A DNA stretch of 64,000 nt from an uncultured Gemmatimonadales bacterium (GCA_963798845.1 CAWCUS010000004.1:451781-515780), one strand, 5' to 3'. Shown: positions 8,819 through 46,363, counted from the first letter of the stretch. Notes: a model not told the origin generated them from the letters alone. Made by a program: numbers and translations.

Positions 8819-9072
8819 TTGACTCCGGCCGCACAAGGAGAGTAGCCGCTGCAGCATACGGGTGAGTCCCTGCTGCTGCTGCTGCTGCGAAAGCACCCGC
8901 CGAGCGGCGGCGCGCGCAACGGCCCGAATGGGGCCGTGAAGCGACGTCCGGAGCCGGTGCCTGGCGTCCGGGACACGTTGCCCGGACGCTTCGTATTTCG
9001 GGGGCTGCTGCACGATCGGGCTCGCGGCTCCCGAGACAGGCGAGCCGGGATCTGGACGAGGAAGGAGGATCG

Positions 9073-11130
9073 ATGGCATCACGCCATGTGCACAGGTCGC
9101 GACCCGGCACGCCGCCGGGAATCCGGTGGAATCGCCCGTCGGTCGCTCCGCCGGCGGGACCCGGCGCCGTGTTTCCGTCAGTGCAGCGGTCGGTGCTTCG
9201 AGCGCGCGACAACGTCTTGCGCCAGCAGCGGTCCGACGGCCACTGGTGCGGGATCCTGGAGGGCGACAGCATCCTCGAGTCCGAGTACGTCCTGCTTCAG
9301 CACTTCCTGGGGCGGGGAGACGGGATGAAGGCGCGCAAGGCCACGCGCCGGCTGCGCTCGCTCCAGACCGCCGATGGCGGTTGGTCAATGTACCCGGGCG
9401 GGCCACCGGACGTGAGCGCGTCCATCAAGGCGTACTTCGTCCTCAAGCTCCAGGGCGACGACCCCGAAGCGGCGCACATGCGCCGGGCCCGACAGGTCAT
9501 CCGGGCGCTCGGCGGGCTGCCGGCCGCCAACACCTACACGCGCGTCTATCTCGCCCTGTTCGGGCAGTGGGAGTGGGAGCGCTGCCCCGCCATCCCGCCC
9601 GAGATGCTGCTCCTCCCCCGCTGGTTCCCATTCCACGTCGACCGGATGTCGTCGTGGAGCCGCGCGATATTCGTCCCGCTCTCCGTCCTCTGGGCGCTCC
9701 GGCCGCGGGTCGACATCGCGCCGGCCGCGGGGCTCGGCGAGCTGCGGCCGGCCGAAGAGCGCGCGATGCTCGAGCGGCTCGCCGCGCACCCGGACGACCC
9801 CGATGGCGATGACGCGGACGTGGACATCGACGCCGAGCTCGGCCTGGGCGCCCTCGCATGGGGCGCCTTCTTTCGCACTGCCGATGCCGGGCTGCGGCAC
9901 ATCGAGCGGGTGCGCGTGACCCCGCTGCGACGCCGCGCTCTCGAGGCGGCGGAAGCCTGGATCCTCGAGCGCATCGACAGCACCGACGGCCTGGGTGCCG
10001 TCTTCCCGTCCATCGCCAACGCGATCATGGCGCTGCGCTGTCTCGGCTACGAGCAGGACCACCCAGCGCTCGCGTCCCAGCAGCGCGCGATGGAGAAGCT
10101 GGAGGTGGACCATGGGGACACCCTCCAGATCCAGCCGTCGCTGTCACCGGTCTGGGATACCGCGCAGGCCATGGCCGCCCTCGCGGCTGCCGGCGTCCCG
10201 CCCGAACACCCCGCCCTCCTCCTGGCCAGCGAATGGCTCCTGGACCGCGAGGTCACCGCCGCGGGCGACTGGCGGTGCGGCAATCCGGACGGACCCGTCG
10301 GCGGCTGGTATTTCGAATACGCCAACGAGTTCTACCCGGACTGCGACGACACCGCCGAGGTCCTCGAGGCCCTCCGCCCCCTCGCCGAGTCCGGCGCCGG
10401 CGACACCGCGCGGATCGAGGCCGCGCGTGACCGCGGACTGGAATGGCTGCTGTCCATGCAGAACGAGGACGGCGGCTGGAGCGCGTTCGATCGGGGCTGC
10501 GATTTCCGTCCCCTGATCCATGTCCCCTTCGCCGACCACAACGCCATGCTGGATCCCAGCTCCGTGGACATCACGGGCCGGATCGTCGACATGCTGGTAT
10601 CCGATGGGATGGACCCGACGCATCCCGTCATCAGGCGGGCGGTCGGCTTCATCCGCGCGCGCCAGGACGAGGACGGCACGTGGTACGGGCGCTGGGGATG
10701 CAACCGCATCTACGGCAGCTGGCTTGCCCTCACCGGCCTCGCGGCCGCCGGTGAGGACACGGAAGGAGAACCGGTGGCGCGCTGCGTGCGCTGGCTGCGG
10801 GATCACCAGAACGAGGATGGCGGGTGGGGCGAGACACCTACCTCCTATTGGGATCGGAGCAGCCGGGGCGTGGGCCCCAGCACGGCCGCCCAGACCGCGT
10901 GGGCGCTGCTCGCGCTCCACGCCGCCGGAGACCCCGGCTCTCCGGCCGTGCGCGCCGGGATCGCCTACCTGCTGCGCACGCAGCGGGCGGACGGGTCCTG
11001 GCACGACGAGTCGTGGACGGCAACCGGGTTCCCGAAGGTCTTCTTCCTCCAGTATCACATGTACGACGACTACTTCCCCCTGCTGGCGCTCGCCCGGTGG
11101 GCATCTGCTGAACGCGAGGAGTACCGATGA
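9073..11130 (+). CDS. shc: Squalene-hopene cyclase
   Basis: YPDCDDTA catalytic motif; QW repeats (QRSDGHW, QTADGGW, QNEDGGW, QRADGSW); AAGGAGG RBS. Confidence 0.97.
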   Translation: MASRHVHRSRPGTPPGIRWNRPSVAPPAGPGAVFPSVQRSVLRARDNVLRQQRSDGHWCGILEGDSILESEYVLLQHFLGRGDGMKARKATRRLRSLQTADGGWSMYPGGPPDVSASIKAYFVLKLQGDDPEAAHMRRARQVIRALGGLPAANTYTRVYLALFGQWEWERCPAIPPEMLLLPRWFPFHVDRMSSWSRAIFVPLSVLWALRPRVDIAPAAGLGELRPAEERAMLERLAAHPDDPDGDDADVDIDAELGLGALAWGAFFRTADAGLRHIERVRVTPLRRRALEAAEAWILERIDSTDGLGAVFPSIANAIMALRCLGYEQDHPALASQQRAMEKLEVDHGDTLQIQPSLSPVWDTAQAMAALAAAGVPPEHPALLLASEWLLDREVTAAGDWRCGNPDGPVGGWYFEYANEFYPDCDDTAEVLEALRPLAESGAGDTARIEAARDRGLEWLLSMQNEDGGWSAFDRGCDFRPLIHVPFADHNAMLDPSSVDITGRIVDMLVSDGMDPTHPVIRRAVGFIRARQDEDGTWYGRWGCNRIYGSWLALTGLAAAGEDTEGEPVARCVRWLRDHQNEDGGWGETPTSYWDRSSRGVGPSTAAQTAWALLALHAAGDPGSPAVRAGIAYLLRTQRADGSWHDESWTATGFPKVFFLQYHMYDDYFPLLALARWASAEREEYR

Positions 11131-12131
11131 TGCGATTTCCGCCCCATATCGTCACCGACAACATCCGGCACCAGGTGTCGAACGCCATGAAGGGGAACAG
11201 GCGCTATCCGTCTGTCCTGATGCTGGAGCCGCTGTACACGTGCAACCTGGCGTGCGTCGGCTGCGCGCTGGAGCGGCACACGGGTAAGCTCTCGGATCGT
11301 GTGTCGGTGGAGCGCGCCCTCGGAGCCGTCGAGGACTCCGGCGCCCCTGCTGTGTCCATCTGCGGTGGCGAGCCCACGATCTACCCGGAGCTGCCGGAGC
11401 TGGTGCAGGGCATCATCGATCGCAAGCGGCACATCTACCTGTGCACGAACGCCCTCATGCTGGACCGCCGCGTGTTCGACGTCATCCCGCCGCACAAGCG
11501 TCTGAGCATCAACATCCACCTCGATGGGATGCGAGACACGCACGATTTCGTGACGGACCGTGCCGGGGTGTTCGACAAGGCAGTCGAGATGATCAGGGAG
11601 TCCAAGGCGCGCGGCTATCACACCCTCACGAACACCACGATCTACAAGCAGACGGACGTGGAGGAGGTGGAGGAGCTCTGTCAGCTGTGTGCCGGCCTCG
11701 GCGTCGACGGGATGATGATCGCGCCAGGCTACCACTACGAGTCCGTGGAGCGGGACGTGTTCATGGTGCGCCAGGAGATCGAGGACAAGTTCAAGCGCGT
11801 GCGCGAGTTCGCGGACCGCTACCCGATCACGTCCACGCCCATGTTCCTCGAGTTCGCCGCGGGGCTGCGCGAGCTCGACTGCTCCCCCTGGAGCACCGTG
11901 ACGTACACGCCGCGCGGGTGGAAGGGCCCCTGCTATCTCATCGGCGAGCGCTACTACGACGACTGGGAAGAGTTCTGGAACACCACCGACTGGCAGTACT
12001 GGGAATCCCGCCAGGATCATCGCTGCCAGAACTGCAAGATGCACTCGGGGTTCGAGGCATCCGCCGTGCGTGAGGTGGCGAAGAGCCCGCGACACATGGC
12101 GAAGATGGCGCTCTGGCAGATCTCGGCGTGA
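11127..12131 (+). CDS. hpnH: Adenosylhopane synthase, radical SAM protein HpnH
   Basis: VLMLEPLYTCNLACVGC (CxxxCxxC); C-terminal CQNCKMHSGFE; overlaps the shc stop. Confidence 0.93.
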   Translation: MMRFPPHIVTDNIRHQVSNAMKGNRRYPSVLMLEPLYTCNLACVGCALERHTGKLSDRVSVERALGAVEDSGAPAVSICGGEPTIYPELPELVQGIIDRKRHIYLCTNALMLDRRVFDVIPPHKRLSINIHLDGMRDTHDFVTDRAGVFDKAVEMIRESKARGYHTLTNTTIYKQTDVEEVEELCQLCAGLGVDGMMIAPGYHYESVERDVFMVRQEIEDKFKRVREFADRYPITSTPMFLEFAAGLRELDCSPWSTVTYTPRGWKGPCYLIGERYYDDWEEFWNTTDWQYWESRQDHRCQNCKMHSGFEASAVREVAKSPRHMAKMALWQISA

Positions 12132-12137
12132 CTTCCC

Positions 12138-13133
12138 GTGCCCCCCTCCGTCCTGGTCACCGGCGCGACGGGATTCATCGGGTCCCACGTGGTCCGGGCG
12201 CTGATCCGGCGGGGCGACGTCGTCCGCTGCCTCGTCCGGCCGGACAGCAGCCGCGTCGCCCTGGATGGACTGTCGGTGGACCTCGTCGAGGGGGACCTGA
12301 CGCGCCCGGCCACGCTGCGGCCGGCCGTGCGCGGCGTCCGGACGGTCTTCCACTGCGCCGCCGATTATCGCTTCGGCGCCCATCTCGCCGACACGATCTT
12401 CCGCACCAACGTGGAAGGGACGCGGGCGATTCTGGAGGCGGCTGCGGAGGCCGGAGTGGGGCGCGTGGTCCACACGAGCTCCGTGGGCGCGCTCGCCGGC
12501 GGGCGGACGCGGTCCACGCCCGCAGACGAGATGTCGCTCCCGGACGTGGACGAGCTCGTGGGCGCCTACAAGCGAAGCAAGTACGAGGCGGAGCGCGTGG
12601 CCGAGGAATGGCACCGGCGCGGCCTGCCGGTCGTGATCGTGTCCCCGTCCACGCCCATCGGCGAGTGGGATGCCAAGCCGACGCCCACCGGCCAGATGAT
12701 CGTGGACGTCCTGAACGGCAGGATCCCGGCGTACGTGGAGGGCGGGCTCAACATCGTGGACGTGCGCGACGTGGCCGAGGGACACCTTCTCGCCGAGTCC
12801 CGCGGTCAGCCCGGCGAGCGCTACATCCTCGGAGGTCGCAACGTCACCTTCCGGGAGTTGTTCGAGATGATCGCCCGCGCGGCGGGGCTCGCGCCCCCAC
12901 GACTGCGTGTCCCGCGCTGGCTCCCGCTCGTTGCCGCGCACGCCGAGAGCGCGCTGGCGCGCGTCCGCGGCCGAGCCCCGCGGCTCACGCCGGAAGCCGT
13001 GCGCATGTCGGCACTGCCCATGTACTTCGACCCCGGACGCGCGATCCGGGAGCTGGGCCTTCCACAGCGCCCGGTGGAGGACGCCATCGCCCGCGCGGTG
13101 CGCTGGTTCCGGGACCGGGGGTACGCGCCTTGA
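12138..13133 (+). CDS. hpnA: Hopanoid-associated NAD-dependent epimerase/dehydratase HpnA
   Basis: VTGATGFIG, FHCAADYR, YKRSK and DAKPTPTG motifs; hpn gene context. Confidence 0.88.
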   Translation: MPPSVLVTGATGFIGSHVVRALIRRGDVVRCLVRPDSSRVALDGLSVDLVEGDLTRPATLRPAVRGVRTVFHCAADYRFGAHLADTIFRTNVEGTRAILEAAAEAGVGRVVHTSSVGALAGGRTRSTPADEMSLPDVDELVGAYKRSKYEAERVAEEWHRRGLPVVIVSPSTPIGEWDAKPTPTGQMIVDVLNGRIPAYVEGGLNIVDVRDVAEGHLLAESRGQPGERYILGGRNVTFRELFEMIARAAGLAPPRLRVPRWLPLVAAHAESALARVRGRAPRLTPEAVRMSALPMYFDPGRAIRELGLPQRPVEDAIARAVRWFRDRGYAP

Positions 13134-13864
13134 CCAGCGCTGCCGTCCTCGTCGTGACCGCGCTGCCGGAAGAGACGCGGCCGGTGCGCCGGGCCCTTCG
13201 AGGCCGACGCGACGTCGTCGTCGCCACCACCGGCGATGGCGCCGAGCGCGCCCGCGCGGCCACGCGCGACCTCCTCGCCGAGCACCGCCCCCGGCTGCTG
13301 GTCGTGGCCGGGCTCGCCGGCTCCCTCACCTCTGGCGCCGCCCCGGGGGACGTGCGCCTGGCACGAGAGGTCCGCGACGAAGTCGGGCGCGTGCGTCACC
13401 CGGATGCGCTCCTGCTGGAGCGCGCTCGCGAGGCCGGCGTGGCGGAGGACGTGCTGGTCAGCGCCAGGAGCCTTGCGCGCACGCCCGAAGAGAGGGACCG
13501 TACGCGGCGACTCGCGCGCGTCCTCGTGCCCGGAACGGGCCTGGTCGACCTGGAGACGGCGGCGTGTGTGGACACGGCGGTGGAGGCCGGTGTAGCATGG
13601 CTCGCCGTGCGCGCCGTGAGCGACGGCCCGGACGACCTCCTCCCCGCTTGGCTGGAGGAAGCCCGTGATGCGCGGGGGTCGATCTCCCGCGGCGCCATCA
13701 TCGGCGGCGCCGTGTTGCGCCCGGGGCGGATCCCCGCGCTCATCGCCCTCGGCCGCCGCGCCCGGCGCGCGGGCCGTGCGCTCGGGGACGCCGTGGCTTC
13801 CATCGTGATGGCGGCCGTCCCCGCCGTGGAGTCTGGGCAACGAAGGATCGGAAACAGAGCATGA
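13130..13864 (+). CDS. hpnG: Nucleoside phosphorylase-fold protein, HpnG-like (adenosylhopane nucleosidase)
   Basis: VTALPEE, VAGLAGSL, VDLETAA and AVRAVSD motifs; TTG start overlaps the hpnA stop. Confidence 0.75.
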   Translation: MTSAAVLVVTALPEETRPVRRALRGRRDVVVATTGDGAERARAATRDLLAEHRPRLLVVAGLAGSLTSGAAPGDVRLAREVRDEVGRVRHPDALLLERAREAGVAEDVLVSARSLARTPEERDRTRRLARVLVPGTGLVDLETAACVDTAVEAGVAWLAVRAVSDGPDDLLPAWLEEARDARGSISRGAIIGGAVLRPGRIPALIALGRRARRAGRALGDAVASIVMAAVPAVESGQRRIGNRA

Positions 13865-14898
13865 GCACCGTGGAGAACGAATTCCAGGCCGCGACCTCGC
13901 AGCGGAAGGCGGAGCATATCCGGCTTGCCATGGACGCGCGCAACCAGCTCGAGGCCCACTATTTCGACCAGTGGCGCCTGGAGCACGATGCGTTGCCGGA
14001 GCTGGCGCTGGAGGAGATCGACACCCGCGTCTCGTTCCTGGGCCGGTCGATGAAGGCGCCGCTCGTGATCTCGTGCATGACGGGCGGCACCGCGGAGGCC
14101 GGGACCATCAACCGGAACCTGGCGGCGGCGGCCCGGGCGAGCGGGGTTGCGCTCGGCGTGGGGTCGCAGCGCGCGGCGGTGGAGGACCCGTCGCTCGCCT
14201 GGACGTTCCAGGTGCGCGACGTGGCGCCCGACGTTCCGCTTCTGGCGAACCTGGGCGCCGTTCAGCTCAACCACGGCTTCGGTCTGGACGAGTGCCGCGC
14301 GGCGGTGGACATGATCGGCGCGGATGCCCTCGTGCTCCACCTCAACGTGCTCCAGGAAGCGATCCAGCCGGAGGGAGACACGGACTTCCGGGGCCTGATC
14401 GAGCGGATCGGCGCCGTGGCCGATGGCCTGGACGTCCCGGTCATCGTGAAGGAGATCGGCTGTGGCATCTCCGGCGCCGTGGCCACTCGCCTCCAGCGCG
14501 TCGGCGTCCGCATGGTCGACGTGGCAGGCGTCGGGGGGACCAGCTGGGCGCGCATCGAGAGCCGTCGCGCCCCGGACGCCGAGCTTGGCGAGCGCTTCGC
14601 CGGGTGGGGGATTCCCACGCCGGAAGCGATCCTCCAGGTCGCAGCGATCGAGGGTTTGACGGTCATCGGCAGCGGCGGGATCCGGACCGGGATCGACGTG
14701 GCCAAGGCCGTGGCGCTCGGCGCGACGCTGGCCGGGCTGGCCCAGCCGTTCCTCGCCCCGGCGAGGGAGTCGGCGGCAGCCGTGGAGGATCGCGTCGGCC
14801 GCATAGTACGGGAGTTGCGCGTGGCCATGCTTTGCAGCGGCGCTGGAGATCTGGGCGCGCTGAGCCGAATCGCCATCCGGAAGGAAGTGCAGCCATGA
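13861..14898 (+). CDS. fni: Type 2 (FMN-dependent) isopentenyl-diphosphate delta-isomerase
   Basis: RKAEHI, SCMTGG, GVGSQR, HLNVLQEAIQPEGD, VKEIGCG and GGTSW motifs. Confidence 0.95.
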   Translation: MSTVENEFQAATSQRKAEHIRLAMDARNQLEAHYFDQWRLEHDALPELALEEIDTRVSFLGRSMKAPLVISCMTGGTAEAGTINRNLAAAARASGVALGVGSQRAAVEDPSLAWTFQVRDVAPDVPLLANLGAVQLNHGFGLDECRAAVDMIGADALVLHLNVLQEAIQPEGDTDFRGLIERIGAVADGLDVPVIVKEIGCGISGAVATRLQRVGVRMVDVAGVGGTSWARIESRRAPDAELGERFAGWGIPTPEAILQVAAIEGLTVIGSGGIRTGIDVAKAVALGATLAGLAQPFLAPARESAAAVEDRVGRIVRELRVAMLCSGAGDLGALSRIAIRKEVQP

Positions 14899-16256
14899 AG
14901 AGAAGCACCGTGACCACCACCTCGCCCCAGGTGCACCTGCGGAACGGCAACGGGAACGGCCACCATAACGGCAACGGCCATCATCCCGCCGGCCAGCAGA
15001 TCGCGGACGACGCGCTCGTGCACGACATGGCCACGGGGAAGCGGGCCCTGCACCGGATTCCGGACAGCATCGACGCCGGTCGGGCCGCGGAGCTTCGGCG
15101 CCGCGCCCTGGCGCGGATCACCGGTGTGGAGCTGGCACACACCGGCCACTACAGCCTCGATGCCGAGCGTGCGGCGCGCTACAACTGCGAGAACTTCGTG
15201 GGTGTTGCGCAGGTCCCCGTGGGCGTGGTCGGGCCGCTTCCCGTGCGAGGCCGCAGCGAGCCGCTGTTCGTCCCGCTCGCCACCACCGAGGGCGCGCTCC
15301 TCGCCAGCACCAACCGCGGGTGCGCCGCCATCAGCGCCGCTGGCGGCGCCACCGTGGACGTGGAGGACGTCGGAATGACCCGCGCACCGGTGTTCCGGAC
15401 CACGGGCATCGAGCACACCCGCAGGGTGGAGGCGTGGGTGGCGTCTCACCTGGAGGAAATGCGGGCCGTGGCCGCGCGAGACAGCCGCTTCATCCAGCTG
15501 CTGGACGTCCGCTCCCAGGCCGTCGGCACCTCGCTCTACCTGCGCTTCCGGTTCTCCACTGCGGACGCCATGGGCATGAACATGGCCACGATCGCCACCG
15601 ACCGGATCGTAACCGAGCTCATCGAGCCGGCCACCGGCGCCGACTGCGTTTCCCTGTCCGGCAACTACGGCGTGGACAAGAAGCCGTCCGCCATCAACGC
15701 GCGGGAGGGGAGGGGAAAGCGGATCTTCGCCGAGGTCGTGCTCAGCGGAGAGATCCTCGAGCGCTACCTGAAGACCAGTGCCGCCCCGCTGGTCGAGGTC
15801 CAGTACAGGAAGAACCTCCTCGGCTCGGCCGTGGCGGGGTCGCTCGGCTTCAATGCCCACTACGCCAATCTCGCGGCCGCGCTCTTCATCGCCACCGGGC
15901 AGGACCCGGCGCAGGTCGCCGAGGCGGCGCTGGGCACCACGTGCATCGAGCGCCGCGGCGAGGACGGCGTCTACTTCTCCATCTGCATGCCCAATGCGCC
16001 CGTGGGCGTCGTGGGGGGCGGCACCGGCCTGGCCACGCAGCGGGAGGCGCTCGCCCTCATGGGCGCGCTCCCGGACCCCGACAACCCGGGACAGGGAGCG
16101 ATCCGCCTGGCAGAGGCGCTGGGCGCCACCGTCCTCGCGGGCGAGCTCTCCCTTCTGGCCGCCCTCACCTCTCGCGACCTGGCACGCGCCCACGAGAGGC
16201 TGGGCCGGGCCGGCACCGCCGCCGAGGTCGCCGAGGTCGTCGAGGCGAGGGAATGA
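14895..16256 (+). CDS. hmgA: Class I (NADPH) HMG-CoA reductase
   Basis: ENFVG, PLATTEGAL, DAMGMNM, SGNYGVDKKPSAIN, GQDPAQ and VGGGT motifs. Confidence 0.95.
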   Translation: MKRSTVTTTSPQVHLRNGNGNGHHNGNGHHPAGQQIADDALVHDMATGKRALHRIPDSIDAGRAAELRRRALARITGVELAHTGHYSLDAERAARYNCENFVGVAQVPVGVVGPLPVRGRSEPLFVPLATTEGALLASTNRGCAAISAAGGATVDVEDVGMTRAPVFRTTGIEHTRRVEAWVASHLEEMRAVAARDSRFIQLLDVRSQAVGTSLYLRFRFSTADAMGMNMATIATDRIVTELIEPATGADCVSLSGNYGVDKKPSAINAREGRGKRIFAEVVLSGEILERYLKTSAAPLVEVQYRKNLLGSAVAGSLGFNAHYANLAAALFIATGQDPAQVAEAALGTTCIERRGEDGVYFSICMPNAPVGVVGGGTGLATQREALALMGALPDPDNPGQGAIRLAEALGATVLAGELSLLAALTSRDLARAHERLGRAGTAAEVAEVVEARE

Positions 16257-17393
16257 ACCGTCCGGCCACCGTCCCGGCCACCGGCCGCGCTCCCGCCGCA
16301 CCTCCCCCTGACGGGGTGGCGCGTCCGGAGCGGGCCTCTGCCCCGGGGAAGCTCATCCTCATGGGCGAGCATTCGGTGGTCTACGGCCAACCCGCCGTGG
16401 CCGCGGCCGTGCAGCGGCGATATGCGCGTGACAGTGTCGCCGCGAACGCCGTCGGCAGAGCCCGGCGTCGCCCTGAAGCTGGGCCGCCATGCTCCCGTGT
16501 TCGTGCCGTGGAGCGAGGCCGTACGGGAGGTCGAGGCGGCCGTTGCGGCGGCAGGACGTGGCCGGGGCGACGGCGCGGCTCTCGCCGTGACGGCGCTGGG
16601 GGAGGCCGCGCGCCGCATCGGAGGCCAGCCGCCTTCCTTCGACGTCACGGTGGACAGCGACATCCCCGCCGGCCACGGCATGGGCAGCTCTGCCGCGCTC
16701 GCCCTGGCGATCCTCGACGCGGTCTGCCGTGCGGCTGGCCGTGGGCTCGATCGCGAAGCGCTCGAGGCAGCGGCTCACGTCGTCGAGCGCCGGCAGCACG
16801 GCGCCCCTTCCGGCGTCGACGTCGCCACGGTCCTGAGAGGCGGCGTCATATGCGCGTCCGCGCACGAACCGACCGGCCAAGCCGGGCGCGCGGACGCCCC
16901 CCGCCTCCGGTTCCACGCCCTCGATGCCAGCTCCGCATCGCTGTCGCGCCTGCGCGTGTTCGACTCGGGGTGTCCGGCGAACGGGACGGGCGAGGTCGTG
17001 AGGGCGGTGCGGCGTCGCCTGGACGCGGATCCCGGCCTCGAAAGCGAGCTGGAGCGGATGGGCCGGCTGGCGGCCGGCTTCGCGGATCTCCTCGTCGCCG
17101 GTGACGACCCGGCGGCCGAGGCGAAGGCGATCCGGGAGTTCCAGGCGGCCCTGGAATCGCTCGGCGTGGTCCCGCCGTCCGCGGCGCGCCTGATCCGCCG
17201 CATCGAAGCGGAAGGCGGGGCGGCCAAGGTCTCCGGCGCGGGCGGCCTGTGCGATGGCGAGGATGGGAGGCCGGGCGCGGGCATGATCCTGGTCCACCAC
17301 GAGGACCCGGAGCGCGTGCTCCGCTGGCCGTTCCTCGGCGGGCTCGAGCCCGTCGACGCCCTCGTCGGCGGCCCCGGGCTGGAGGCGTGGTGA
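16253..17393 (+). CDS. mvk: Mevalonate kinase, split by an apparent +1 frameshift near 16415-16422
   Basis: SAPGKLILMGEHSVVYG in the frame from 16253; SDIPAGHGMGSSAA, HGAPSGVD and AAKVSGAGG in the frame 16422-17393. Confidence 0.88.
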
Positions 17394-18412
17394 GCGTCGT
17401 GCGCGCGGGCTCCGCCCTGGAGGTGTCGACGTGGATGGCTCCCGCCAACATTGCGCTCGTCAAGTACTGGGGCTCGCGTGATCCCAATGCAGGGCTGCCG
17501 GTGAACGCCTCCGTCTCCATGACTCTGGATCGGTGCGTCGCCACGTGCACGGTGCGTCCGCGCCGGGGCGGCGGGGTCCGCGTCATGCGCGACGATGGAC
17601 ACCGGCTGGCGCCCGCGCCCCCGCCGCTCCGCGACCCGGTGGCCGCGCACGTCCAGCGCGTCGCGCGGCGGGCCCAGTGGGATGGCGGGGCCAATGTGGC
17701 CGTGCACGTGAACTTCCCGGTGGCGGCGGGGCTGGCCTCCTCGGCGGCGATCTTCGCGGCCGTCACCTGCGCGGCGGCCTCGGCCTTCGGCCTGGAGCTT
17801 TCCGCGGGCGACCTGGCGAACCTCGCCCGCGCCGGCGGCTCCGGCTCCGCGGCACGGTCGGTCACCGGCGGTTACGTCGAGTGGCGGCCGGGCGCCGACG
17901 GAAGCGGCACCGAGCTGCAGATCGTCGCGCCGGCCTCGCACTGGAGCCTGGCCGACGTCATCGCCATCGCCGATCCGACGCCGAAGCGCGTGTCATCGCG
18001 CGAAGGCCACCGCCGCGCATTCACCAGCCCCTATTTCGAGCGGCGCCTCGCGCTTCTGGACGCCCGCGTCGCGCGGGTTCGGGAGGCGATCGCGGCGCGC
18101 GACCTCGCCGCCCTGGGCGAGGTCGTGGAGGAGGAGGCCACGGACCTGCACCTGATCGCCATGTCGTCCAGGCCGCCGATCCGCTACTGGCGCCCGGCCA
18201 CGGTGGCGATCCTGGAGACGGTGGAGGCTCTCCGACAGGACGGGCGGGCCGCGTGGAGCACCCTCGATGCCGGTCCGAACGTCCACGTGATATGCGATCC
18301 GGACGTGGAGGAGGACGTGGCGGCGCGTCTCGCTGCCGTCCCCGGCGTTCAGCGCGTGATCCGGGACCGCACCGGCCGTGGTCCGGCCGTGTCGCCGGAG
18401 CACCTGTTGTGA
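17390..18412 (+). CDS. mvaD: Diphosphomevalonate-decarboxylase-family enzyme, probably mevalonate-5-phosphate decarboxylase
   Basis: APANIALVKYWG, AAGLASSAA, SGSAARS and TLDAGPNVH motifs; adjacent to IPK with no PMK in the operon. Confidence 0.9.
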   Translation: MSVVRAGSALEVSTWMAPANIALVKYWGSRDPNAGLPVNASVSMTLDRCVATCTVRPRRGGGVRVMRDDGHRLAPAPPPLRDPVAAHVQRVARRAQWDGGANVAVHVNFPVAAGLASSAAIFAAVTCAAASAFGLELSAGDLANLARAGGSGSAARSVTGGYVEWRPGADGSGTELQIVAPASHWSLADVIAIADPTPKRVSSREGHRRAFTSPYFERRLALLDARVARVREAIAARDLAALGEVVEEEATDLHLIAMSSRPPIRYWRPATVAILETVEALRQDGRAAWSTLDAGPNVHVICDPDVEEDVAARLAAVPGVQRVIRDRTGRGPAVSPEHLL

Positions 18413-18423
18413 CGGAGGCGGGA

Positions 18424-19368
18424 ATGCCTGGAACGGTCACGCTCGTCAAGCTCGGTGGCAGCCTGATCACCGACAAGAACGCGCCGGGGACGGCGCGCCC
18501 GGAACTGATCCGCCAGCTGGCGGAGCAGCTGGCGAGGGCGCACCGGTGCGGGCATCGCCTGGTGGTCGGGCACGGCAGCGGCTCCTTCGGTCACCCTGAA
18601 GCCAGGCGGGCAGGGCTGACGGGCTCCGGCGCTGACGCACCACGAGTGGCCGTCCCGGCGGGTACGGGCGCCGCAGCGCCCGTCGACGCCGCTCCTCGAG
18701 CCGGCCGGGACGCCGGAAGGCTCCGCACCGCGCAGGCGGTACCGGTCCGCGCGGCCGGTGCCCGGGGAGAGCAGGGTGATGAGGCGCCATTCCCGCCGGC
18801 CGTCGCCCGGGTCCAGGCCAGGGCTGCCGAGCTGCACCGGCTGGTCCTCGACGCGCTCCTCGCCGCCGGCGCCGCTCCCTTCTCCGTCCCCCCGTCCGCC
18901 GTGGCGGTGGCGCGGGACGGCCGGATCGAGCATTTCCACGCCGAGACGGTCCGCCTGGCGCTGGGCCGGGACTTCATCCCGGTGCTCTACGGCGACGTGG
19001 TCCTGGACCGTGTCCGGGGCGCCTCCATCTGTTCGACCGAGAGCGCGCTCGGCGCCGTGGCGGACTCGCTCCGCGCAGTCGGCTGGCGCATCGATCGCTG
19101 CCTCTGGCTTGGCGCCACACCCGGGGTGATCGGCCCGGACGGCCGCCCATTGGAGCGGATTTCCGTCGATCAGGGACAGGTGCTCCGTTCGGCCGCCGGT
19201 GGAGCAGAAGCCCCCGACGTCACCGGCGGCATGCGCCACCGCGTGGACGCCGCCCTCGCCTTCGCCCGGGCCGGCATCCCCTCGTGGATCGGTGATGGCA
19301 GCTCGCCCGACGTCCTCGAGCGGCTCCTCGCCGACGCCGAAGTCCCCGGTACCCTCGTCGCGCCATGA
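18424..19368 (+). CDS. ipk: Isopentenyl phosphate kinase (amino-acid kinase family)
   Basis: VKLGGSLITDK, HGSGSFGH (IPK His), IPVLYGDVV and DVTGGM motifs; alternative GTG start at 18409. Confidence 0.9.
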   Translation: MPGTVTLVKLGGSLITDKNAPGTARPELIRQLAEQLARAHRCGHRLVVGHGSGSFGHPEARRAGLTGSGADAPRVAVPAGTGAAAPVDAAPRAGRDAGRLRTAQAVPVRAAGARGEQGDEAPFPPAVARVQARAAELHRLVLDALLAAGAAPFSVPPSAVAVARDGRIEHFHAETVRLALGRDFIPVLYGDVVLDRVRGASICSTESALGAVADSLRAVGWRIDRCLWLGATPGVIGPDGRPLERISVDQGQVLRSAAGGAEAPDVTGGMRHRVDAALAFARAGIPSWIGDGSSPDVLERLLADAEVPGTLVAP

Positions 19369-19396
19369 CCCGATCCCGCGCTCCCGGAGAGCCACG

Positions 19397-20353
19397 ATGA
19401 TCGCCACCGAACGCAGGAAGCAGCTGCACTCGCTCCTGGAGGAGACCAGCCGCACGTTCGCCCTGGCCATACCACTCCTTCCGGATCCGCTCTGTACCGA
19501 GGTCACGGAGGCCTACCTGCTGTTCCGCATCGCCGACACCTTCGAGGACTCCACCCGCTGGCCGGTTCCGCGACGGACAGCCGCTCTCGACGAGATGGCC
19601 AGGGTGTTGCAGCAACGGCCCGGCTCACGCGGCGTCCGTGCCGCCCTGGCCCGCCGCTGGCGCGAAGCCCGCCCGGTGGAGCACGCGGGCTACCTCCACC
19701 TCCTGGAGAAAGCGCCCCTCGTCTTTCAGGGGCTCCAGGAGATGCGCCCCGAGGCCGCCGACATCATCGCCGGCCATACCGTCCGGACCTGTCAGGGGAT
19801 GGCTTCCTTCCTCCGCCGCGCCGACGCCGATGGCGTGCTCCGGCTGCGCGACCTGGACGAGCTCCGCGCCTACTGCTACGCGGTGGCGGGGATCGTGGGC
19901 GAGATGCTCACCGAGCTCTTCCTCCTCGATTGCGACGACGCGGCCCAGCTCGGCCCCCGCCTCCGCCGCCGCGCCCGCGAGTTCGGCGAGGCGCTCCAGC
20001 TTGTGAACGTGCTGCGGGACTCCTCGGCCGACGTGAAGGAAGGAAGATCGCTCGTGCCTGGGTCCGTGTCGCGCCAGACGCTTTTCGATCTCGCGCGCGC
20101 CGACCTGCGCCGCGCGGCCGAATACACGCTCGCTCTCCAGTCCGCCGGCGCTGATGGCGGGATCGTCGCGTTCAACGCGCTCCCCGTTCTCCTCGCCATG
20201 GCGACCCTCGACCGGGTCCAGGAGGCGGGGCCCGGGAGCAAGATCTCACGCCCGCGGGTGTGGTCCCTCATGGCGCGCCTGAAGGCCGACATCCGCCTGG
20301 GCCGTCCCGTCATCCGCCTCGAGCGCGACGAGGCCGCCAGCCGCCCCGCGTGA
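19397..20353 (+). CDS. Squalene synthase (single-enzyme FPP:FPP farnesyltransferase type; squalene/phytoene synthase family)
   Basis: SRTFALAI, YLLFRIADTFED, YCYAVAGIVG and LQLVNVLRD motifs. Confidence 0.85.
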   Translation: MIATERRKQLHSLLEETSRTFALAIPLLPDPLCTEVTEAYLLFRIADTFEDSTRWPVPRRTAALDEMARVLQQRPGSRGVRAALARRWREARPVEHAGYLHLLEKAPLVFQGLQEMRPEAADIIAGHTVRTCQGMASFLRRADADGVLRLRDLDELRAYCYAVAGIVGEMLTELFLLDCDDAAQLGPRLRRRAREFGEALQLVNVLRDSSADVKEGRSLVPGSVSRQTLFDLARADLRRAAEYTLALQSAGADGGIVAFNALPVLLAMATLDRVQEAGPGSKISRPRVWSLMARLKADIRLGRPVIRLERDEAASRPA

Positions 20354-21645
20354 CAGCCGCCCCGCCCCGGACCGTCTCCGTCGGGGTGCTGGTCACCCTG
20401 CACCGCGGCCCCGGGGAAGGGGGGCACGTCCGCTGCTGGGAGCGGTTCGCGGAGGCCGCCGTGGATACGCCCGAGCTCGACCTCACCGTCTATTTCCTCG
20501 GCGACAATGGGTCCGAGCACCGCCTGGGGCCCCGGACCCGCTACGTCACGCTGCGACCCCGGCTGGGGACCGACCGCTTCGCTTTCCTTCGCCAGGGCGC
20601 CGGGGACACCGACCTCGCTCCCGTCCACGGCCGCCTGGCCGCGCTGCTCCCGCGCCACGACGTTCTCCACGCCACCGACACGTTCGCCTTCGGGCGCACG
20701 GCCAGGCGGGTGGCCCGGCGCTCCGGCAGGCCGCTGGTCTTCTCGTTCCACACGCACCTGCCGCGCTTCACTCGCGTGTACGCCCGCCGCATCTTCCGCC
20801 GCACCTTCGGGATGGGGGTTCCGGGATGGCTGGGTCTCGACCACGTGCTGGTGGACGCGCTCCGGGTCCACGTCTGGGCCGCCCGCCTCACACGCCGCTC
20901 CGTGGAAGGGTTCATGCGGGACAGCCGGACCGTCTTCGTGTCCAACGAGCAGGATCGGGCCTGGGCCACCGACACCGTCCCGCCGGCGCGCGTCCGGATG
21001 CTCCGGCGCGGAATCGACCCGGAGCGCTTCCGACCCCGCGCCAATGCGGCCGTGGAGGTCCGGCGCAGGTACGCGCTCCCGGACCGGCCGCTGGTGCTTT
21101 TCGCCGGGCGAGTCGACGACAGCAAGAACGTCCTCCTCGTGGCTCGCGCGCTCCGCCGCCTGCTGGACTCGGACGCCACCGCCCACCTGGTGGTGGTCGG
21201 GGAAGGGGAGCGCACGACCGACCTCGCCCACATCCTGGGCCCCGCCGTCTCCTGCCTCGGGGCACTGCCCCAGGAAGCGCTCGCCGATGTCTACGCGGCG
21301 GCCGACGTCTTCGCCTTCCCATCGCGAACCGAGACGGTCGGCAACGTGGTCATCGAGGCGCTTTCCTCCGGCCTCCCTGCCGTCGTCGCGGCCGGGACGT
21401 CGTGCGCCGAGCGCGTGGCAGGGGCCGGTCGCGTCGGGCCGGTGGATGCGGGCACCGTCGTCGCCGAAGACAGCCCGGAGGCCTGGGCCGAGGCGCTCCG
21501 CCCCTTCCTGTCTGGGAACGGCCGGAAGGCGGCGGCGAGTGCCGCGGCGCGGCGCAGGATCGAGCGCGGGTGGCCGTCCTGGAGCGACGTGCTGCGGGAG
21601 GACCTGCTCCCGGTCTGGACCGAGCTCCGGCAGCCGCGCCCGTGA
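20350..21645 (+). CDS. Glycosyltransferase family 4 (GT-B)
   Basis: FHTHLP, LFAGRVDDSKN and FPSRTETVGNVVIEALSSGLP motifs; GTGA overlap with squalene synthase. Confidence 0.88.
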   Translation: MTAAPPRTVSVGVLVTLHRGPGEGGHVRCWERFAEAAVDTPELDLTVYFLGDNGSEHRLGPRTRYVTLRPRLGTDRFAFLRQGAGDTDLAPVHGRLAALLPRHDVLHATDTFAFGRTARRVARRSGRPLVFSFHTHLPRFTRVYARRIFRRTFGMGVPGWLGLDHVLVDALRVHVWAARLTRRSVEGFMRDSRTVFVSNEQDRAWATDTVPPARVRMLRRGIDPERFRPRANAAVEVRRRYALPDRPLVLFAGRVDDSKNVLLVARALRRLLDSDATAHLVVVGEGERTTDLAHILGPAVSCLGALPQEALADVYAAADVFAFPSRTETVGNVVIEALSSGLPAVVAAGTSCAERVAGAGRVGPVDAGTVVAEDSPEAWAEALRPFLSGNGRKAAASAAARRRIERGWPSWSDVLREDLLPVWTELRQPRP

Positions 21646-21699: not shown

Positions 21700-24279
21700 A
21701 TGACGCGATCCTGGACCCCGGACGCCGTGAAGGCGTCGTGGCGGCGGCTCGAGCCGCTGCTGGCGCTTCCGTTCCTGCTCGTGGCGGTGGTGATGATCCA
21801 CCACGAGATGCGGGAGTTCCGCTGGGCCGACGTGCGCGTTGCGGTGGCCGACCTCCCCGCCGGGCACGTGGCCGTGGCCGTCCTGCTCACCGCGTTGAGC
21901 TTCCTCGTGCTGACCACGTTCGACGTCCTGGGCCTCCGCTACGCCGGCCAGCCGCTCCGCTATCGCCGCACCGCCTTCGCTTCCTTCCTCGGCTACGCGT
22001 TCAGCAACGCGCTCGGCTTCCCGCTCCTCACCGGAGCCCCGGTCCGCTACCGCCTCTACACGGCGTGGGAGGTGGAGCCGGCGCGCATCCGCGACATCGT
22101 CGCATTCTACACGGCCTCGTTCTGGATCGGCTTCCTCGCCCTCGGCGGTGTGGTCCTGTTCCTCGAGCCGATCCACATCCCGGGGCTCCTTCGACTCCCC
22201 TTCCACAATGCGCGACCCCTGGGTGCCGCCTTCGCCCTCGCCGCCGTGGCGTATGCGTCGTGGGGTGTCGCGGGCGGCCGCGGCTTGCGGTTCGGCCGCT
22301 GGCAGATCTCGCCGCCCGGACCGGCGCTGACCTTCGCCCAGCTCGGGGTAGCCATGGCCGACTGGGCGGTGGCCGCCGCGGTGCTCTACGTCCTGCTCCC
22401 GCCCGGAAGCGGCCTGGGCTACCCGGCCTTCATCGGCATCTTCCTGCTCGCGCAGATCGCGGGCCTGGTCAGCCATGTGCCCGGCGGGCTGGGCGTGTTC
22501 GAGGCCGTCACCCTGGCTTTTCTCCCCGATGAGATCGGACAGGGCGCCCTGCTCGCCTCCCTCCTCGTCTACCGCGCCGTCTACTACCTCCTCCCGCTCC
22601 TCGTCGCCGTCGCCGCGCTCGGCGTCTTCGAGGCGCGCCGCCGGCGCGAAGGGTTGGAGCGCGCGGCCGGCCTCATTGGCCGGGGCCTCACCCTGGTGGT
22701 CCCGCAGGCCATGGCGATCGCCACTTTCGTGGCCGGACTCGTCCTCCTTTTCTCCGGCGCTACTCCCGCAATGGGAGGACGCCTGCGCTGGCTCGATGAT
22801 GTCCTCCCCCTCGGCCTCATCGAAGCATCCCATTTCCTCGCCAGCCTGGCTGGCGGCGGCCTCCTCGTCCTCGCCTGGGGTATACAGCGACGCCTCGACG
22901 CCGCCTACCACCTCACCGTCGCCCTCCTCCTCACGGGGATCGTCTTCACGCTGCTCAAGGGGCTCGACTACGAGGAGGCCGTCGTCCTCGCCATCACGAC
23001 CGGTGCCCTCGTGGCCAGCCGCGGAGAGTTCTACCGCCGCGCTTCCCTCCTCGCCGAGCCGTTCACCGCCGGGTGGGCCGCGGCCGTGCTCGGCGCGCTC
23101 ATCGCCACGATCGGCCTCGGGCTCCTGGCCTACAAGAACGTGGTCTACACCGACGCTCTCTGGTGGCGCTTCGCCCGCGACGCCGACGCGCCCCGGTTCC
23201 TCCGGGCGACGGTCGGCACCCTCACGGCCGTCGGCACGTTCGCGCTCGCCCGCCTCCTCGCGCCCGCTCGCCCCTCAGCGCCGCTCCCGCCCGCCGATGA
23301 CGTCGCCACCGCCGCCGACATCGCCCGGCGCTCTCCCCGCGCGTACCCCCAGCTGGCGCTGCTCGGGGACAAGCATTTCCTCTTCGACGAGGAGCGGAGC
23401 GCGTTCCTGATGTACGGCGTCGAAGGTCGCAGCTGGGTGGCGATGGGCGATCCGGTCGGACCCGATCCGCCCGCGCGAGAGCTCGCGTGGCAGTTCCTCG
23501 AGCGCGCACACCGCCACGGTGACTGGCCCGTGTTCTACCAGGTCACGCCCGCCCGGCTGCCCCTGTACGTCGACCTCGGCCTCTCCCTGACCAAGATCGG
23601 CGAGGAGGCTCGCGTCCCGCTCCCGGAGTTCTCCCTCGAGGGCGGCCGCCGCAAGGGGATGCGCTACACGCTCCGCAAGGCCGACGACAAGGGCGCTTCG
23701 TTCCGGGTGCTCGAGCCCGACGAGCTCGCGCAGGCCCTGCCCCGGCTGCGCGCCGTCTCCGACGACTGGATCGCCCGCAAGAACACGCGCGAGAAGGGCT
23801 TCTCCCTCGGGTTCTTCGACGAGGCGTACCTTCGCGCGACCAGCGTGGCCGTCGTCGAGCTGCAAGGAGAGATCGTCGCTTTCGCCAACGTGCTCCGCGG
23901 CGCCGACCGCCACGAGCTCTCCGTCGACCTCATGCGCTACGCCGCCGCCGCGCCCCCGAGCACCATGGAGTACCTCTTCGTTCGGCTCCTCCTCTGGGGG
24001 CGGGACACGGGGTACGACTGGTTCAGCCTGGGCATGGCCCCGCTCGCCGGGCTCCAGGCCCGCCCCCTCGCCCCCTTCTGGGTCCGGGCTGGCGCCGCCC
24101 TGTTCCACCACGGCGAACAGTTCTACAACTTCGAGGGGCTGCGCGAGTACAAGGAGAAATTCGATCCGGTCTGGGAGCCCCGCTACATCGCTTCCCCCGG
24201 CGGACTGGCCCTCCCGCGCGTCCTGGCCAACGTGGCGACGCTCGTCAGCGGAGGCTTCCGCGGCGTCGTCGGGCGCTGA
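21700..24279 (+). CDS. mprF: Bifunctional aminoacyl-phosphatidylglycerol flippase/synthetase MprF
   Basis: N-terminal multi-TM region with SHVPGGLGVFE; C-terminal MGDPVG, KIGEEA, EKGFSLG, SVDLMRY and YNFEGLREYKEKFDPVWEPRY motifs. Confidence 0.95.
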   Translation: MTRSWTPDAVKASWRRLEPLLALPFLLVAVVMIHHEMREFRWADVRVAVADLPAGHVAVAVLLTALSFLVLTTFDVLGLRYAGQPLRYRRTAFASFLGYAFSNALGFPLLTGAPVRYRLYTAWEVEPARIRDIVAFYTASFWIGFLALGGVVLFLEPIHIPGLLRLPFHNARPLGAAFALAAVAYASWGVAGGRGLRFGRWQISPPGPALTFAQLGVAMADWAVAAAVLYVLLPPGSGLGYPAFIGIFLLAQIAGLVSHVPGGLGVFEAVTLAFLPDEIGQGALLASLLVYRAVYYLLPLLVAVAALGVFEARRRREGLERAAGLIGRGLTLVVPQAMAIATFVAGLVLLFSGATPAMGGRLRWLDDVLPLGLIEASHFLASLAGGGLLVLAWGIQRRLDAAYHLTVALLLTGIVFTLLKGLDYEEAVVLAITTGALVASRGEFYRRASLLAEPFTAGWAAAVLGALIATIGLGLLAYKNVVYTDALWWRFARDADAPRFLRATVGTLTAVGTFALARLLAPARPSAPLPPADDVATAADIARRSPRAYPQLALLGDKHFLFDEERSAFLMYGVEGRSWVAMGDPVGPDPPARELAWQFLERAHRHGDWPVFYQVTPARLPLYVDLGLSLTKIGEEARVPLPEFSLEGGRRKGMRYTLRKADDKGASFRVLEPDELAQALPRLRAVSDDWIARKNTREKGFSLGFFDEAYLRATSVAVVELQGEIVAFANVLRGADRHELSVDLMRYAAAAPPSTMEYLFVRLLLWGRDTGYDWFSLGMAPLAGLQARPLAPFWVRAGAALFHHGEQFYNFEGLREYKEKFDPVWEPRYIASPGGLALPRVLANVATLVSGGFRGVVGR

Positions 24280-31837: not shown

Positions 31838-31901
31838 GGCCCGCCAAAGATAGCTCCGCCGGAGCCGCTTGCAACGAGCGACCGCGCGCGGGGGGCGTTG
31901 C

Positions 31902-45956: not shown

Positions 45957-46363
45957 TCGGGCACGCGACGGAGCCCTTTCGGATACGGTACGCGGAAACC
46001 GACCAGATGGGCGTGGCCTACCACGCCAACTACCTGGCCTGGTGCGAGATCGGACGCACCGAGCTCATGCGCGACGTCGGCCTCACCTACGCCGAGATGG
46101 AGCGCCGAGGCCAGTTCCTGGCCGTTGCCGAGGCTTCCGTCCGCTACATCGCCGCCGCTCGCTATGACGACCTGATCCGCGTTCGAACCGGGATCGAGGG
46201 CGTGAAGTCGCGCACGGTCACGTTCGCTTACGAGATCGAGCGCCTGGAGCCCGCTCCCGCCCGGCTCGCCAGCGCGCACACCACGCTGATCTGCCTGGAC
46301 CCGGGCGGCAGGCCGCGACGGCTTCCGGACGACGTCTTCGCCCTGCTCGAGCCGCGCGAATGA
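45953..46363 (+). CDS. Acyl-CoA thioesterase, YbgC/4HBT family
   Basis: RYAETDQMGVAYHANYL motif. Confidence 0.9.
   Translation: MIGHATEPFRIRYAETDQMGVAYHANYLAWCEIGRTELMRDVGLTYAEMERRGQFLAVAEASVRYIAAARYDDLIRVRTGIEGVKSRTVTFAYEIERLEPAPARLASAHTTLICLDPGGRPRRLPDDVFALLEPRE

Follow-up and report, generated by a model that had tools for sequence, protein, structure and literature searches.

Hopanoid, mevalonate and squalene synthase genes in one conserved block of an uncultured Gemmatimonadales bacterium

Introduction

Hopanoids are major geological biomarkers, and the interpretation of their isotopic composition and of their sources assumes a precursor pathway. The mevalonate and methylerythritol phosphate (MEP) routes to isoprenoid precursors differ in carbon and hydrogen isotope fractionation. 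The locus described here raises the question of whether a bacterium may feed hopanoid synthesis from mevalonate genes that are carried in the same gene block. The block occupies positions 9073-21645 of a 64,000-nucleotide stretch of DNA from an uncultured Gemmatimonadales bacterium (GCA_963798845.1 CAWCUS010000004.1:451781-515780), the whole of which is called the window below. A preliminary description of this DNA had read the block as one operon that joins hopanoid biosynthesis to an archaeal-type mevalonate pathway and to one-step squalene synthesis.

The analysis makes it probable that the block is a conserved lipid module of three cassettes (hopanoid, mevalonate and squalene synthase) that feeds hopanoid synthesis and that is auxiliary to the MEP pathway in the genus of the window. 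The evidence consists of the identity, order and conservation of the genes, their distribution among relatives, and the isoprenoid genes found elsewhere in the genome. A frameshift in the mevalonate kinase gene complicates this answer and is weighed below.

Results

The window has a G+C content of about 71%, and its genes were called from the third-position GC content (GC3) of each frame together with start and stop codon tables, and named through Pfam and NCBIfam. Frame plots, open reading frame tables and family scans agree that eleven genes, all on the + strand, fill 9073-21645, in the order shc, hpnH, hpnA, hpnG-like, idi-2, hmgA, mvk, decarboxylase gene, ipk, sqs and a GT4 glycosyltransferase gene. 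Both the positions and the eleven identities given in the preliminary description are thereby confirmed, with HpnG and Sqs nonetheless scoring under the curated cut-offs. The genome to which the window belongs (G000; six contigs, 96% complete, 3.2% estimated contamination) was compared, among others, with a genome of the same genus (G001) and with one from another genus of the same family (G011). Between G000 and G001 the ratio of nonsynonymous to synonymous substitution rates (dN/dS) is 0.10-0.37, which indicates purifying selection on every gene of the module.

Eight of the ten junctions are start/stop overlaps of 4 nt, as had been counted earlier: shc/hpnH, hpnA/hpnG, hpnG/idi, idi/hmgA, hmgA/mvk, mvk/decarboxylase, decarboxylase/ipk and sqs/GT4. 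The hpnH/hpnA junction is a gap of 6 nt, and the ipk/sqs junction is either a gap of 29 nt (from ATG 19397) or an overlap of 74 nt (from ATG 19295). With a GC3 of about 90%, GTG will often overlap a TGA stop by chance, and the overlaps do not prove the exact starts; the next alternative starts all lie at most 36 nt away, and therefore the tight packing of the block stands. Given this tight coupling, it is plausible that the eleven genes are transcribed as one unit. One promoter-like and three terminator-like sites were found across the region, no more than in shuffled sequence.

The first four genes make up the predicted hopanoid cassette. The gene shc (9073-11130, +) encodes a squalene-hopene cyclase of 685 residues (TIGR01507, 643 bits, cut-off 431) with QW motifs and with DCDD, the DxDD motif, at residue 423, and is preceded by an AAGGAGG Shine-Dalgarno sequence 5 nt 5' of its ATG. 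Overlapping the shc stop as ATGA, hpnH (11127-12131, +) encodes a radical SAM adenosyl-hopene transferase (TIGR03470, 351 bits, cut-off 225) with its CxxxCxxC motif, CNLACVGC, at residue 39. It is followed by hpnA (12138-13133, +), of the hopanoid-associated NAD-dependent epimerase/dehydratase family (TIGR03466, 424 bits, cut-off 368). The fourth gene (13130-13864, +), with a TTG start that overlaps the hpnA stop as TTGA, encodes a divergent HpnG-like purine nucleosidase/phosphorylase of the PNP_UDP_1 fold family (PF01048, 53 bits; TIGR03468, 78 bits, cut-off 187). Its place between hpnA/hpnH and idi2 is kept in 20 related loci, at 28-40% identity. A GC-rich hairpin of 10 bp lies at window 8963-8990 (+), about 80 nt 5' of the shc start.

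The mevalonate cassette begins with idi-2 (13861-14898, +), for a type 2 isopentenyl diphosphate (IPP) isomerase (TIGR02151, 387 bits, cut-off 281), which has an ATGA overlap with the preceding stop. The next gene, hmgA (14895-16256, +), encodes a class I 3-hydroxy-3-methylglutaryl coenzyme A (HMG-CoA) reductase (PF00368, 378 bits; TIGR00533, 421 bits, cut-off 442). Its closest solved structure is a class I enzyme, 6hr7 (366 bits), and the motifs TTEG, DAMGMN, DKKP, GQD and ARAH are all in place. After mvk, which is treated separately below, comes a decarboxylase gene (17390-18412, +) that passes the diphosphomevalonate decarboxylase (DMD) model TIGR01240 (187 bits, cut-off 171), while the archaeal MvaD model of NCBIfam gives 123 bits against a cut-off of 475. 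These scores run contrary to a phosphomevalonate decarboxylase (PMD).

Comparison with solved structures gives a different picture. The best match of the decarboxylase is 6n0x (233 bits), whereas DMDs reach at most 145 bits; 6n0x is the PMD of Anaerolinea thermophila with bound mevalonate-5-phosphate (PMC9254496), and its engineered variant 6n0z carries two substitutions in the alignment, K for N and M for H. According to the part of PMC11052028 drawn on here, the Lys conserved in DMD is missing from PMD-like enzymes, in which a His is conserved. The window protein has Ser where 6n0z has Lys, keeps His207 and contains DAGPN. Among 59 aligned homologues from related loci, a set with two rows that duplicate contigs already included, the His is found in all 59 and the DMD-type Lys in one. 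The enzyme is thus predicted to be of the PMD rather than the DMD type.

The cassette ends with ipk (18409-19368, +), encoding an isopentenyl phosphate kinase (IPK) that lies just at the threshold of its family model (NF040647, 120.2 bits, cut-off 120) and has a GSGSFGH motif. Its seven best solved matches comprise six isopentenyl phosphate kinases (best 79 bits) and 3lkk, for which the only name given is gamma-glutamyl kinase related protein. Between residues 73 and 130, an insert of about 55 residues with little conservation was noticed, in a stretch that stays unaligned in G001 and G011 too. Together, these genes point to the "decarboxylate first" PMD and IPK pathway of the haloarchaeal and Chloroflexi type. 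The earlier label of an archaeal-type mevalonate pathway fits in so far as it refers to this route; for hmgA it does not hold, since a tree built by a quick method from 41 chosen of 85 rows places this gene in a bacterial clade separate from the archaeal copies.

The third cassette is a single gene, sqs, predicted to encode a squalene synthase homologue. Solved squalene synthases align with residues 31-262 of the 352-residue frame that starts at ATG 19295, equivalent to -3 to 228 from ATG 19397; because this homology begins there, ATG 19397 is the favored start, giving a protein of 318 residues (19397-20353, +; PF00494, 118 bits; TIGR01559, 80 bits, cut-off 287). Both Asp-rich motifs, DTFED and DSSAD, are present. 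The closest homologues are labeled Gemmatimonadota, which puts the window in this phylum, and database names among relatives are farnesyl-diphosphate farnesyltransferase or squalene/phytoene synthase family protein. The HpnC/HpnD pair was not found in G000, where just two SQS_PSY genes occur, the one in the block and a CrtB-like gene whose neighbors are a CruF-type carotenoid gene and a prenyl synthase. The proposal of one-step squalene synthesis thus fits a single Sqs-type gene in place of HpnCDE.

The low TIGR01559 score, the restriction of the structural alignment to residues 31-262 of 352, and additional weak matches to CrtM and phytoene synthases would also suit a protein that makes another head-to-head product, such as dehydrosqualene, phytoene or a related C30/C40 hydrocarbon, in which case the block would not be a line from squalene to hopanoids. 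We consider this very unlikely. The top family and the top solved matches (7wgh, 61 bits) are squalene synthases, and the gene shares one block with shc in G000, G001, G142, G322 and the genomes of family f7. Moreover, with no HpnC/HpnD pair detected and the other SQS_PSY gene in the carotenoid locus, the cyclase would otherwise lack a source of substrate. In that carotenoid locus (G000:C6:1117455-1121096; L102 5456-9096, -), prenyl-synthase and CrtB-like domains share one open frame of 898 residues, either a fusion or two genes, and a CruF-like hydratase adjoins it.

The same arrangement recurs in relatives. G001 carries all eleven genes, followed by mprF and a histidine kinase gene, in the same order, and G011 carries shc to ipk. 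Scanning the hmgA alignment against one genome per species gave 80 loci, 58 of which, at 54% identity or more, belong to the bacterial group: 48 Acidobacteriota, 6 Gemmatimonadota, 2 Rhodothermota, 1 Pseudomonadota and 1 unclassified. In this group idi2 stands beside hmgA in 56/58 loci; where the downstream flank is long enough (41 loci), mvk, the decarboxylase gene and ipk are present in 37, and where it reaches at least 9 kb (34 loci), sqs is present in 27. The genes shc and hpnH lie upstream of hmgA in 12/58 loci (5 Gemmatimonadota and 7 Acidobacteriota), or in 9 of the 41 that have at least 7 kb of upstream flank.

Within the window's own family, ipk and an above-cut-off shc were found in the same three genomes of 41 relatives (G000, G001 and G011). 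Of 401 genomes sampled from the phylum, 15 have shc above cut-off. A true ipk occurs in seven genomes, scoring above cut-off in six of them and at 113 bits in G423; shc is found in all seven of these, at a distance of about 10 kb or less in five. In the remaining two, ipk and shc are 336 kb apart (G414) or on separate contigs (G423). With shc and hpnH upstream in 12 of the 80 hmgA-related loci and shc and ipk co-localized in 5 of the 401 phylum genomes, the arrangement is widespread.

A chimeric join in the assembly had been named as a way in which the block might mislead. It was ruled out by the same gene order in assemblies made independently for the same genus, for another genus, for another family and for another phylum. 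An assembly or binning artefact that brought together the DNA of two organisms is scarcely credible on the same grounds; in addition, the junctions are overlaps of 4 nt and the GC content is uniform across the block.

HpnN was not found in G000, either with TIGR03480 at E <= 1e-10 or by tblastn with the HpnN of locus L017. That locus, from an f7 genome of the Gemmatimonadota, has an HpnN hopanoid RND transporter gene (TIGR03480, 900 bits) between ipk and sqs (L017 12479-15253, +, = G394:C27). The start of this gene overlaps the ipk stop, and the mevalonate genes there stand between hopanoid genes.

The rest of the genome was left for checking by the preliminary description, and here the MEP genes dxs (789 bits), dxr (439), ispG (389) and ispH (233) were all found above cut-off on other contigs, in a search that covered these four and left out ispD, ispE and ispF. 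The hopanoid precursors therefore need not come from mevalonate, and the block is not the sole precursor source. Nor is it near self-contained, as had been proposed. Contig C2 carries an archaeal-type HMG-CoA synthase (HMGS; G000:C2:142182-143219, L101 5183-6229; TIGR00748, 506 bits), followed by an archaeal-type thiolase and a DUF35/BbsA-like protein; an FPP-synthase-like prenyl synthase gene (FPP, farnesyl diphosphate) adjoins dxs on a third contig, and HpnN is missing from the genes found. Since the module coexists with MEP genes in the window's genus, its supply of precursors there would be auxiliary.

Three states of gene content were observed in the phylum. In the first, the f7 genera g130, g94 and g155 carry the module; dxs was not found in any of five f7 genomes (G121, G394, G414, G285 and G423), nor in G426-G429, which were reached through loci (G426 being the same as G394), and ispH was found in none of the six genomes of these genera, versus 30 of 41 for the whole family. 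In the second, genomes with dxs have a hopanoid block without hmgA-ipk: shc-hpnH-hpnA-hpnG-sqs in G142, shc-hpnH-hpnA-hpnG-idi2-sqs in G322 and shc-hpnH-hpnG-idi2 in G189. The third state is that of G000, G001 and G011, with both the module and dxs. In G322, shc shares its contig with dxs, which is found about 7.5 kb upstream (G322:C69:21925-23778, L110).

The first of these states bears on another reading, namely that the mevalonate genes are the housekeeping supply for all isoprenoids (quinones, carotenoids, bactoprenol) and stand beside hopanoid genes through history or shared regulation, and not to supply hopanoid synthesis in particular. In the f7 genera without detected dxs and ispH, the block is the only route found and must serve the whole cell, and the acidobacterial run idi2-hmgA-mvk-pmd-ipk-sqs is mostly without shc nearby (31 of the 38 loci with at least 7 kb upstream). 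The MEP genes of G000, however, make such a role unneeded there. In the family, ipk occurs only where shc does, and the mevalonate cassette is accompanied by sqs, a committed triterpene step, in the 27/34 loci counted above. A housekeeping role therefore appears unlikely, and supply of hopanoid synthesis is still the reading that we prefer.

Mevalonate kinase is the step at which the block of this genome departs from its relatives. The gene, reported earlier as a single one, is recognizable by family in both halves; what had been missed is that mvk (16253-17393, +) is not one open frame. Its N-terminal part (16253-16420, +) is read from ATG 16253, in an ATGA overlap with the hmgA stop, and contains GKLILMGEHSVVYG, a conserved N-terminal motif of mevalonate kinases. 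The remainder (16422-17393, +), with the GHMP kinase domain, is read in the next frame (PF00288, 65 bits; TIGR00549, 100 bits, cut-off 163, for the stop-to-stop frame), which is open from 16257 only and has no start before 16422. The N-terminus is 72% identical to that of G001, and DNA alignment to G001 places an apparent insertion of 1 nt at 16418-16421 (+), with CGATATG in the window against CGCCTG in G001; the site is not a homopolymer run. Both halves are in one intact frame in G001 and G011.

The lesion is either a very recent inactivation or an assembly error. With a dN/dS of 0.33 between G000 and G001, mvk has been constrained by purifying selection during most of the period after their split, and a real lesion would therefore be very recent. 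Near-identical DNA occurs in two public DNA runs of one freshwater sediment study (9% and 5% of sampled words); these runs gave contigs of 151-301 nt at a depth of about 1-3, none of them shown to cover 16418-16421, with no indels listed.

If the lesion is real, the mevalonate part of this block may be a decaying remnant, in which hmgA-ipk became redundant in an MEP-bearing lineage, mvk lost its function, and hopanoid synthesis draws on IPP from the MEP pathway. The extra base, at a site that is not homopolymeric, puts the catalytic N-terminal motif and the remainder of the kinase in different frames, all four MEP genes searched for are above cut-off, and the dxs-bearing G142, G322 and G189 share the hopanoid block with hmgA-ipk missing. 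The dN/dS values of mvk, pmd and ipk (0.21-0.33) are also higher than those of hmgA and idi2 (0.10). The value for mvk nevertheless means constraint over most of the time since the split, no other gene of the block is broken, an error in the assembly consensus explains the extra base equally well, and the short, low-depth public contigs leave the site itself uncovered as far as they are shown. We regard decay as a serious possibility, although it seems to us somewhat improbable, and keep to a module that supplies hopanoid synthesis beside the MEP pathway.

A tree of shc (21 rows, with L104 and L105 omitted as copies of the L017 and L023 contigs) places the window's genus in a supported clade of Gemmatimonadota (100/99) with G011, G189 and f7. 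The copies of family f4 fall elsewhere: that of G142 pairs with an acidobacterial copy (99/98), the pair being sister (94/92) to the Gemmatimonadota clade, and that of G322 has no resolved place among the acidobacterial copies at the base. These positions of the f4 copies suggest that shc may have been exchanged between phyla. For the module itself, transfer within the phylum and vertical descent with many losses are both possible.

The last gene of the block (20350-21645, +) encodes a GT4 glycosyltransferase (PF13692 and PF00534; no NCBIfam model at cut-off) and has a GTGA overlap with sqs. It is followed after 55 nt by mprF (21700-24279, +; NF033480, 921 bits, cut-off 600), a neighbor that is not counted in the module. 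Directly after this bifunctional MprF, a sensor histidine kinase gene was noted at window 24367-25776 (+). Among the other loci scanned, GT4 follows sqs only in G001, and the synteny of GT4, mprF and the kinase gene is likewise restricted to the genus, so that GT4 may belong with MprF-type lipid modification rather than with hopanoids. In four members of the family that lack the module (G405, G010, G015 and G013), the mprF orthologue has unrelated neighbors, and no insertion or deletion boundary could be defined from these.

On the block's other flank, between an asparaginase gene and shc, a membrane protein with only an LPG_synthase_TM (flippase-like) domain is encoded at window 7733-8599 (-); tblastn did not find it at the equivalent site of G001, where the gap from asparaginase to shc is about 720 nt. 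Elsewhere in the window, a polyketide synthase-like KR/DH protein is cut by the window start (3-2363, +), a Dak2/FakA-like protein is fused to DegV (30038-32140, -), and an aldehyde dehydrogenase and, after it, a thioesterase domain share one open frame (43013-46363, +).

Discussion

The gene content allows a pathway to be proposed, in which the activities and products are those that we infer from the families of the proteins. HMG-CoA would be made elsewhere in the genome by the archaeal-type HMGS/thiolase/DUF35 trio. The "decarboxylate first" cassette of idi-2, class I hmgA, mvk, PMD and IPK would then convert it through mevalonate, mevalonate-5-phosphate and isopentenyl phosphate to IPP and dimethylallyl diphosphate. 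FPP would come from an FPP synthase encoded outside the block, and the one-gene squalene synthase that forms the third cassette would turn FPP into squalene. In the hopanoid cassette of shc, hpnH, hpnA and the hpnG-like gene, the cyclase would convert squalene to hopene, HpnH would form adenosylhopane and the HpnG-like enzyme ribosylhopane, leading to lipids of the bacteriohopanetetrol type.

The tight packing of the genes may serve co-transcription and translational coupling, and the patchy distribution would be most easily understood if the module moves, or gets lost, as a unit. In some genera of the Gemmatimonadota it would be the only isoprenoid route, as far as the genes found indicate. 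In the genome of the window, the insertion in mvk may mean that the mevalonate branch has just been inactivated, with hopanoids then built on MEP-derived IPP, or it may be an assembly error.

Several observations weigh against this proposal. With mvk frameshifted, the organism may be without a working mevalonate branch. Four proteins, HpnG, Sqs, Mvk and the hmgA product, score below the cut-offs of their NCBIfam equivalog models, and Ipk lies exactly at its cut-off. Phosphomevalonate kinase was not found in G000 in a search with the GHMP-type model TIGR01220 (E <= 0.001) that did not extend to the animal-type family. No RNA run is among the public runs with matching DNA, which leaves the single transcript unproven, and a role of GT4 in the hopanoid pathway is doubtful, since this gene follows sqs only in the window's genus. 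The archaeal-type HMGS was expected to be co-distributed with the module and is not: it is missing from the genes found in G011 and present in five relatives (G005, G010, G018, G019 and G039) that have neither ipk nor shc, and because of this it probably has another role in those five.

The case for a mobile module is limited in the same way. The comparison genomes are mostly metagenome-assembled genomes (MAGs) that are about 90-99% complete, in which a gene not found is not the same as a gene absent. The hmgA tree places the window's genus near Rhodothermales with an SH-aLRT of only 90, which settles no origin and names no donor. The GC content of the module (72.4%, against 70.6 +/- 1.5% for 12.5-kb windows of the genome; 92nd percentile) shows no sign of recent transfer. 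Because of the state of that tree and of the GC content, vertical descent with losses stays a possible account of the distribution.

A wider reading can be offered only tentatively, and we judge it, in all its parts together, slightly more likely to be wrong than right. It holds that the PMD/IPK route is native, and sometimes the sole one, in Acidobacteriota, Gemmatimonadota and Rhodothermota, where it would be built into a squalene/hopanoid operon as a transferable unit. That unit would comprise precursor supply, squalene synthesis, cyclization, tailoring and, for some lineages, also export. All stages of a pathway swap would then be on view in the Gemmatimonadota: genera with mevalonate only, the window's genus, where both routes occur and the kinase has only just been broken, and MEP genera from which hmgA-ipk was deleted while the hopanoid genes were retained.

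If these readings are true, Gemmatimonadota and many Acidobacteriota can couple hopanoid synthesis to the PMD/IPK mevalonate route, which in some genera is the only route found. The host range of this pathway would widen beyond Chloroflexi, and little-studied phyla of soils and sediments would join the hopanoid producers. They would also provide a natural series in which the replacement of one essential pathway by another could be studied, and the compact block may offer a ready-made part for engineering the production of triterpenoids.

Comparison with known systems

In MEP-bearing Streptomyces, mevalonate clusters are attached to terpenoid biosynthetic clusters, and the MEP pathway is kept for primary metabolism. 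The module of the window's genus resembles these in being an auxiliary mevalonate cluster beside a specific terpenoid pathway in an MEP host. It differs in that the Streptomyces clusters follow the classical route, by way of phosphomevalonate kinase and diphosphomevalonate decarboxylase, and supply secondary metabolites rather than membrane hopanoids.

Canonical hpn clusters, such as those of Zymomonas, Rhodopseudomonas, Burkholderia and Acidobacteria SD1, share shc, hpnH and hpnA with the block, which carries a divergent hpnG-like gene beside these, and can hold precursor genes. They have HpnCDE and often MEP or prenyl genes, whereas the block has Sqs and mevalonate genes. For the tailoring and transport genes the comparison extends to HpnN, not found in G000, with hpnI, J, K, O and P not searched. 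The earlier statement that precursor genes usually lie outside hpn clusters is weakened by an acidobacterial ispA/ispH-shc-hpnH cluster described in PMC5462960.

The same paper (PMC5462960, Sinninghe Damste et al. 2017) also contains a partial precedent for the arrangement that the preliminary description did not recognize as described. The acidobacterial SD22 MAG Mor1 has shc, hpnH, a squalene synthase homologue replacing HpnCDE, and most mevalonate genes, with no MEP genes, and the legend of Figure 7 has a color class for mevalonate genes drawn among hopanoid genes. Mor1 thus resembles the block in having hopanoid genes next to mevalonate genes and Sqs instead of HpnCDE. It is one MAG, mentioned in passing, and the portions of the text drawn on here are silent on the PMD/IPK variant, on operon structure and on distribution. 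Mor1, moreover, belongs to the Acidobacteriota and is without MEP genes, whereas the genome of the window belongs to the Gemmatimonadota and has them. In the portions of PMC7306690 drawn on here, Gemmatimonadota go unmentioned and Sqs is treated as prone to lateral transfer. A search of the literature for hopanoids, mevalonate and these taxa, outside of which lay the supplements of PMC6107057 and PMC7306690, gave no further precedent.

The closest parallel to the mevalonate cassette is the route of Chloroflexi (Roseiflexus and Anaerolinea). As far as the relevant portions of PMC6107057, PMC11052028 and PMC9254496 go, the combination of PMD and IPK is placed, among bacteria, only in this phylum. 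The likeness lies in the set of MVK (frameshifted in this assembly), decarboxylase and IPK, with no phosphomevalonate kinase found in the window's genome, and in a decarboxylase that is closest to the Anaerolinea PMD, with the PMD-type His and without the DMD-type Lys. The difference lies in the hosts, here Gemmatimonadota and Acidobacteriota, in the reductase, here of class I, and in the standing of the route, which is predicted here from sequence. What would be new is thus a predicted PMD/IPK route outside Chloroflexi and a series of three states within one phylum. The block itself is one member of a widespread modular arrangement of hopanoid, mevalonate and squalene genes, and the advance over the known systems is incremental.

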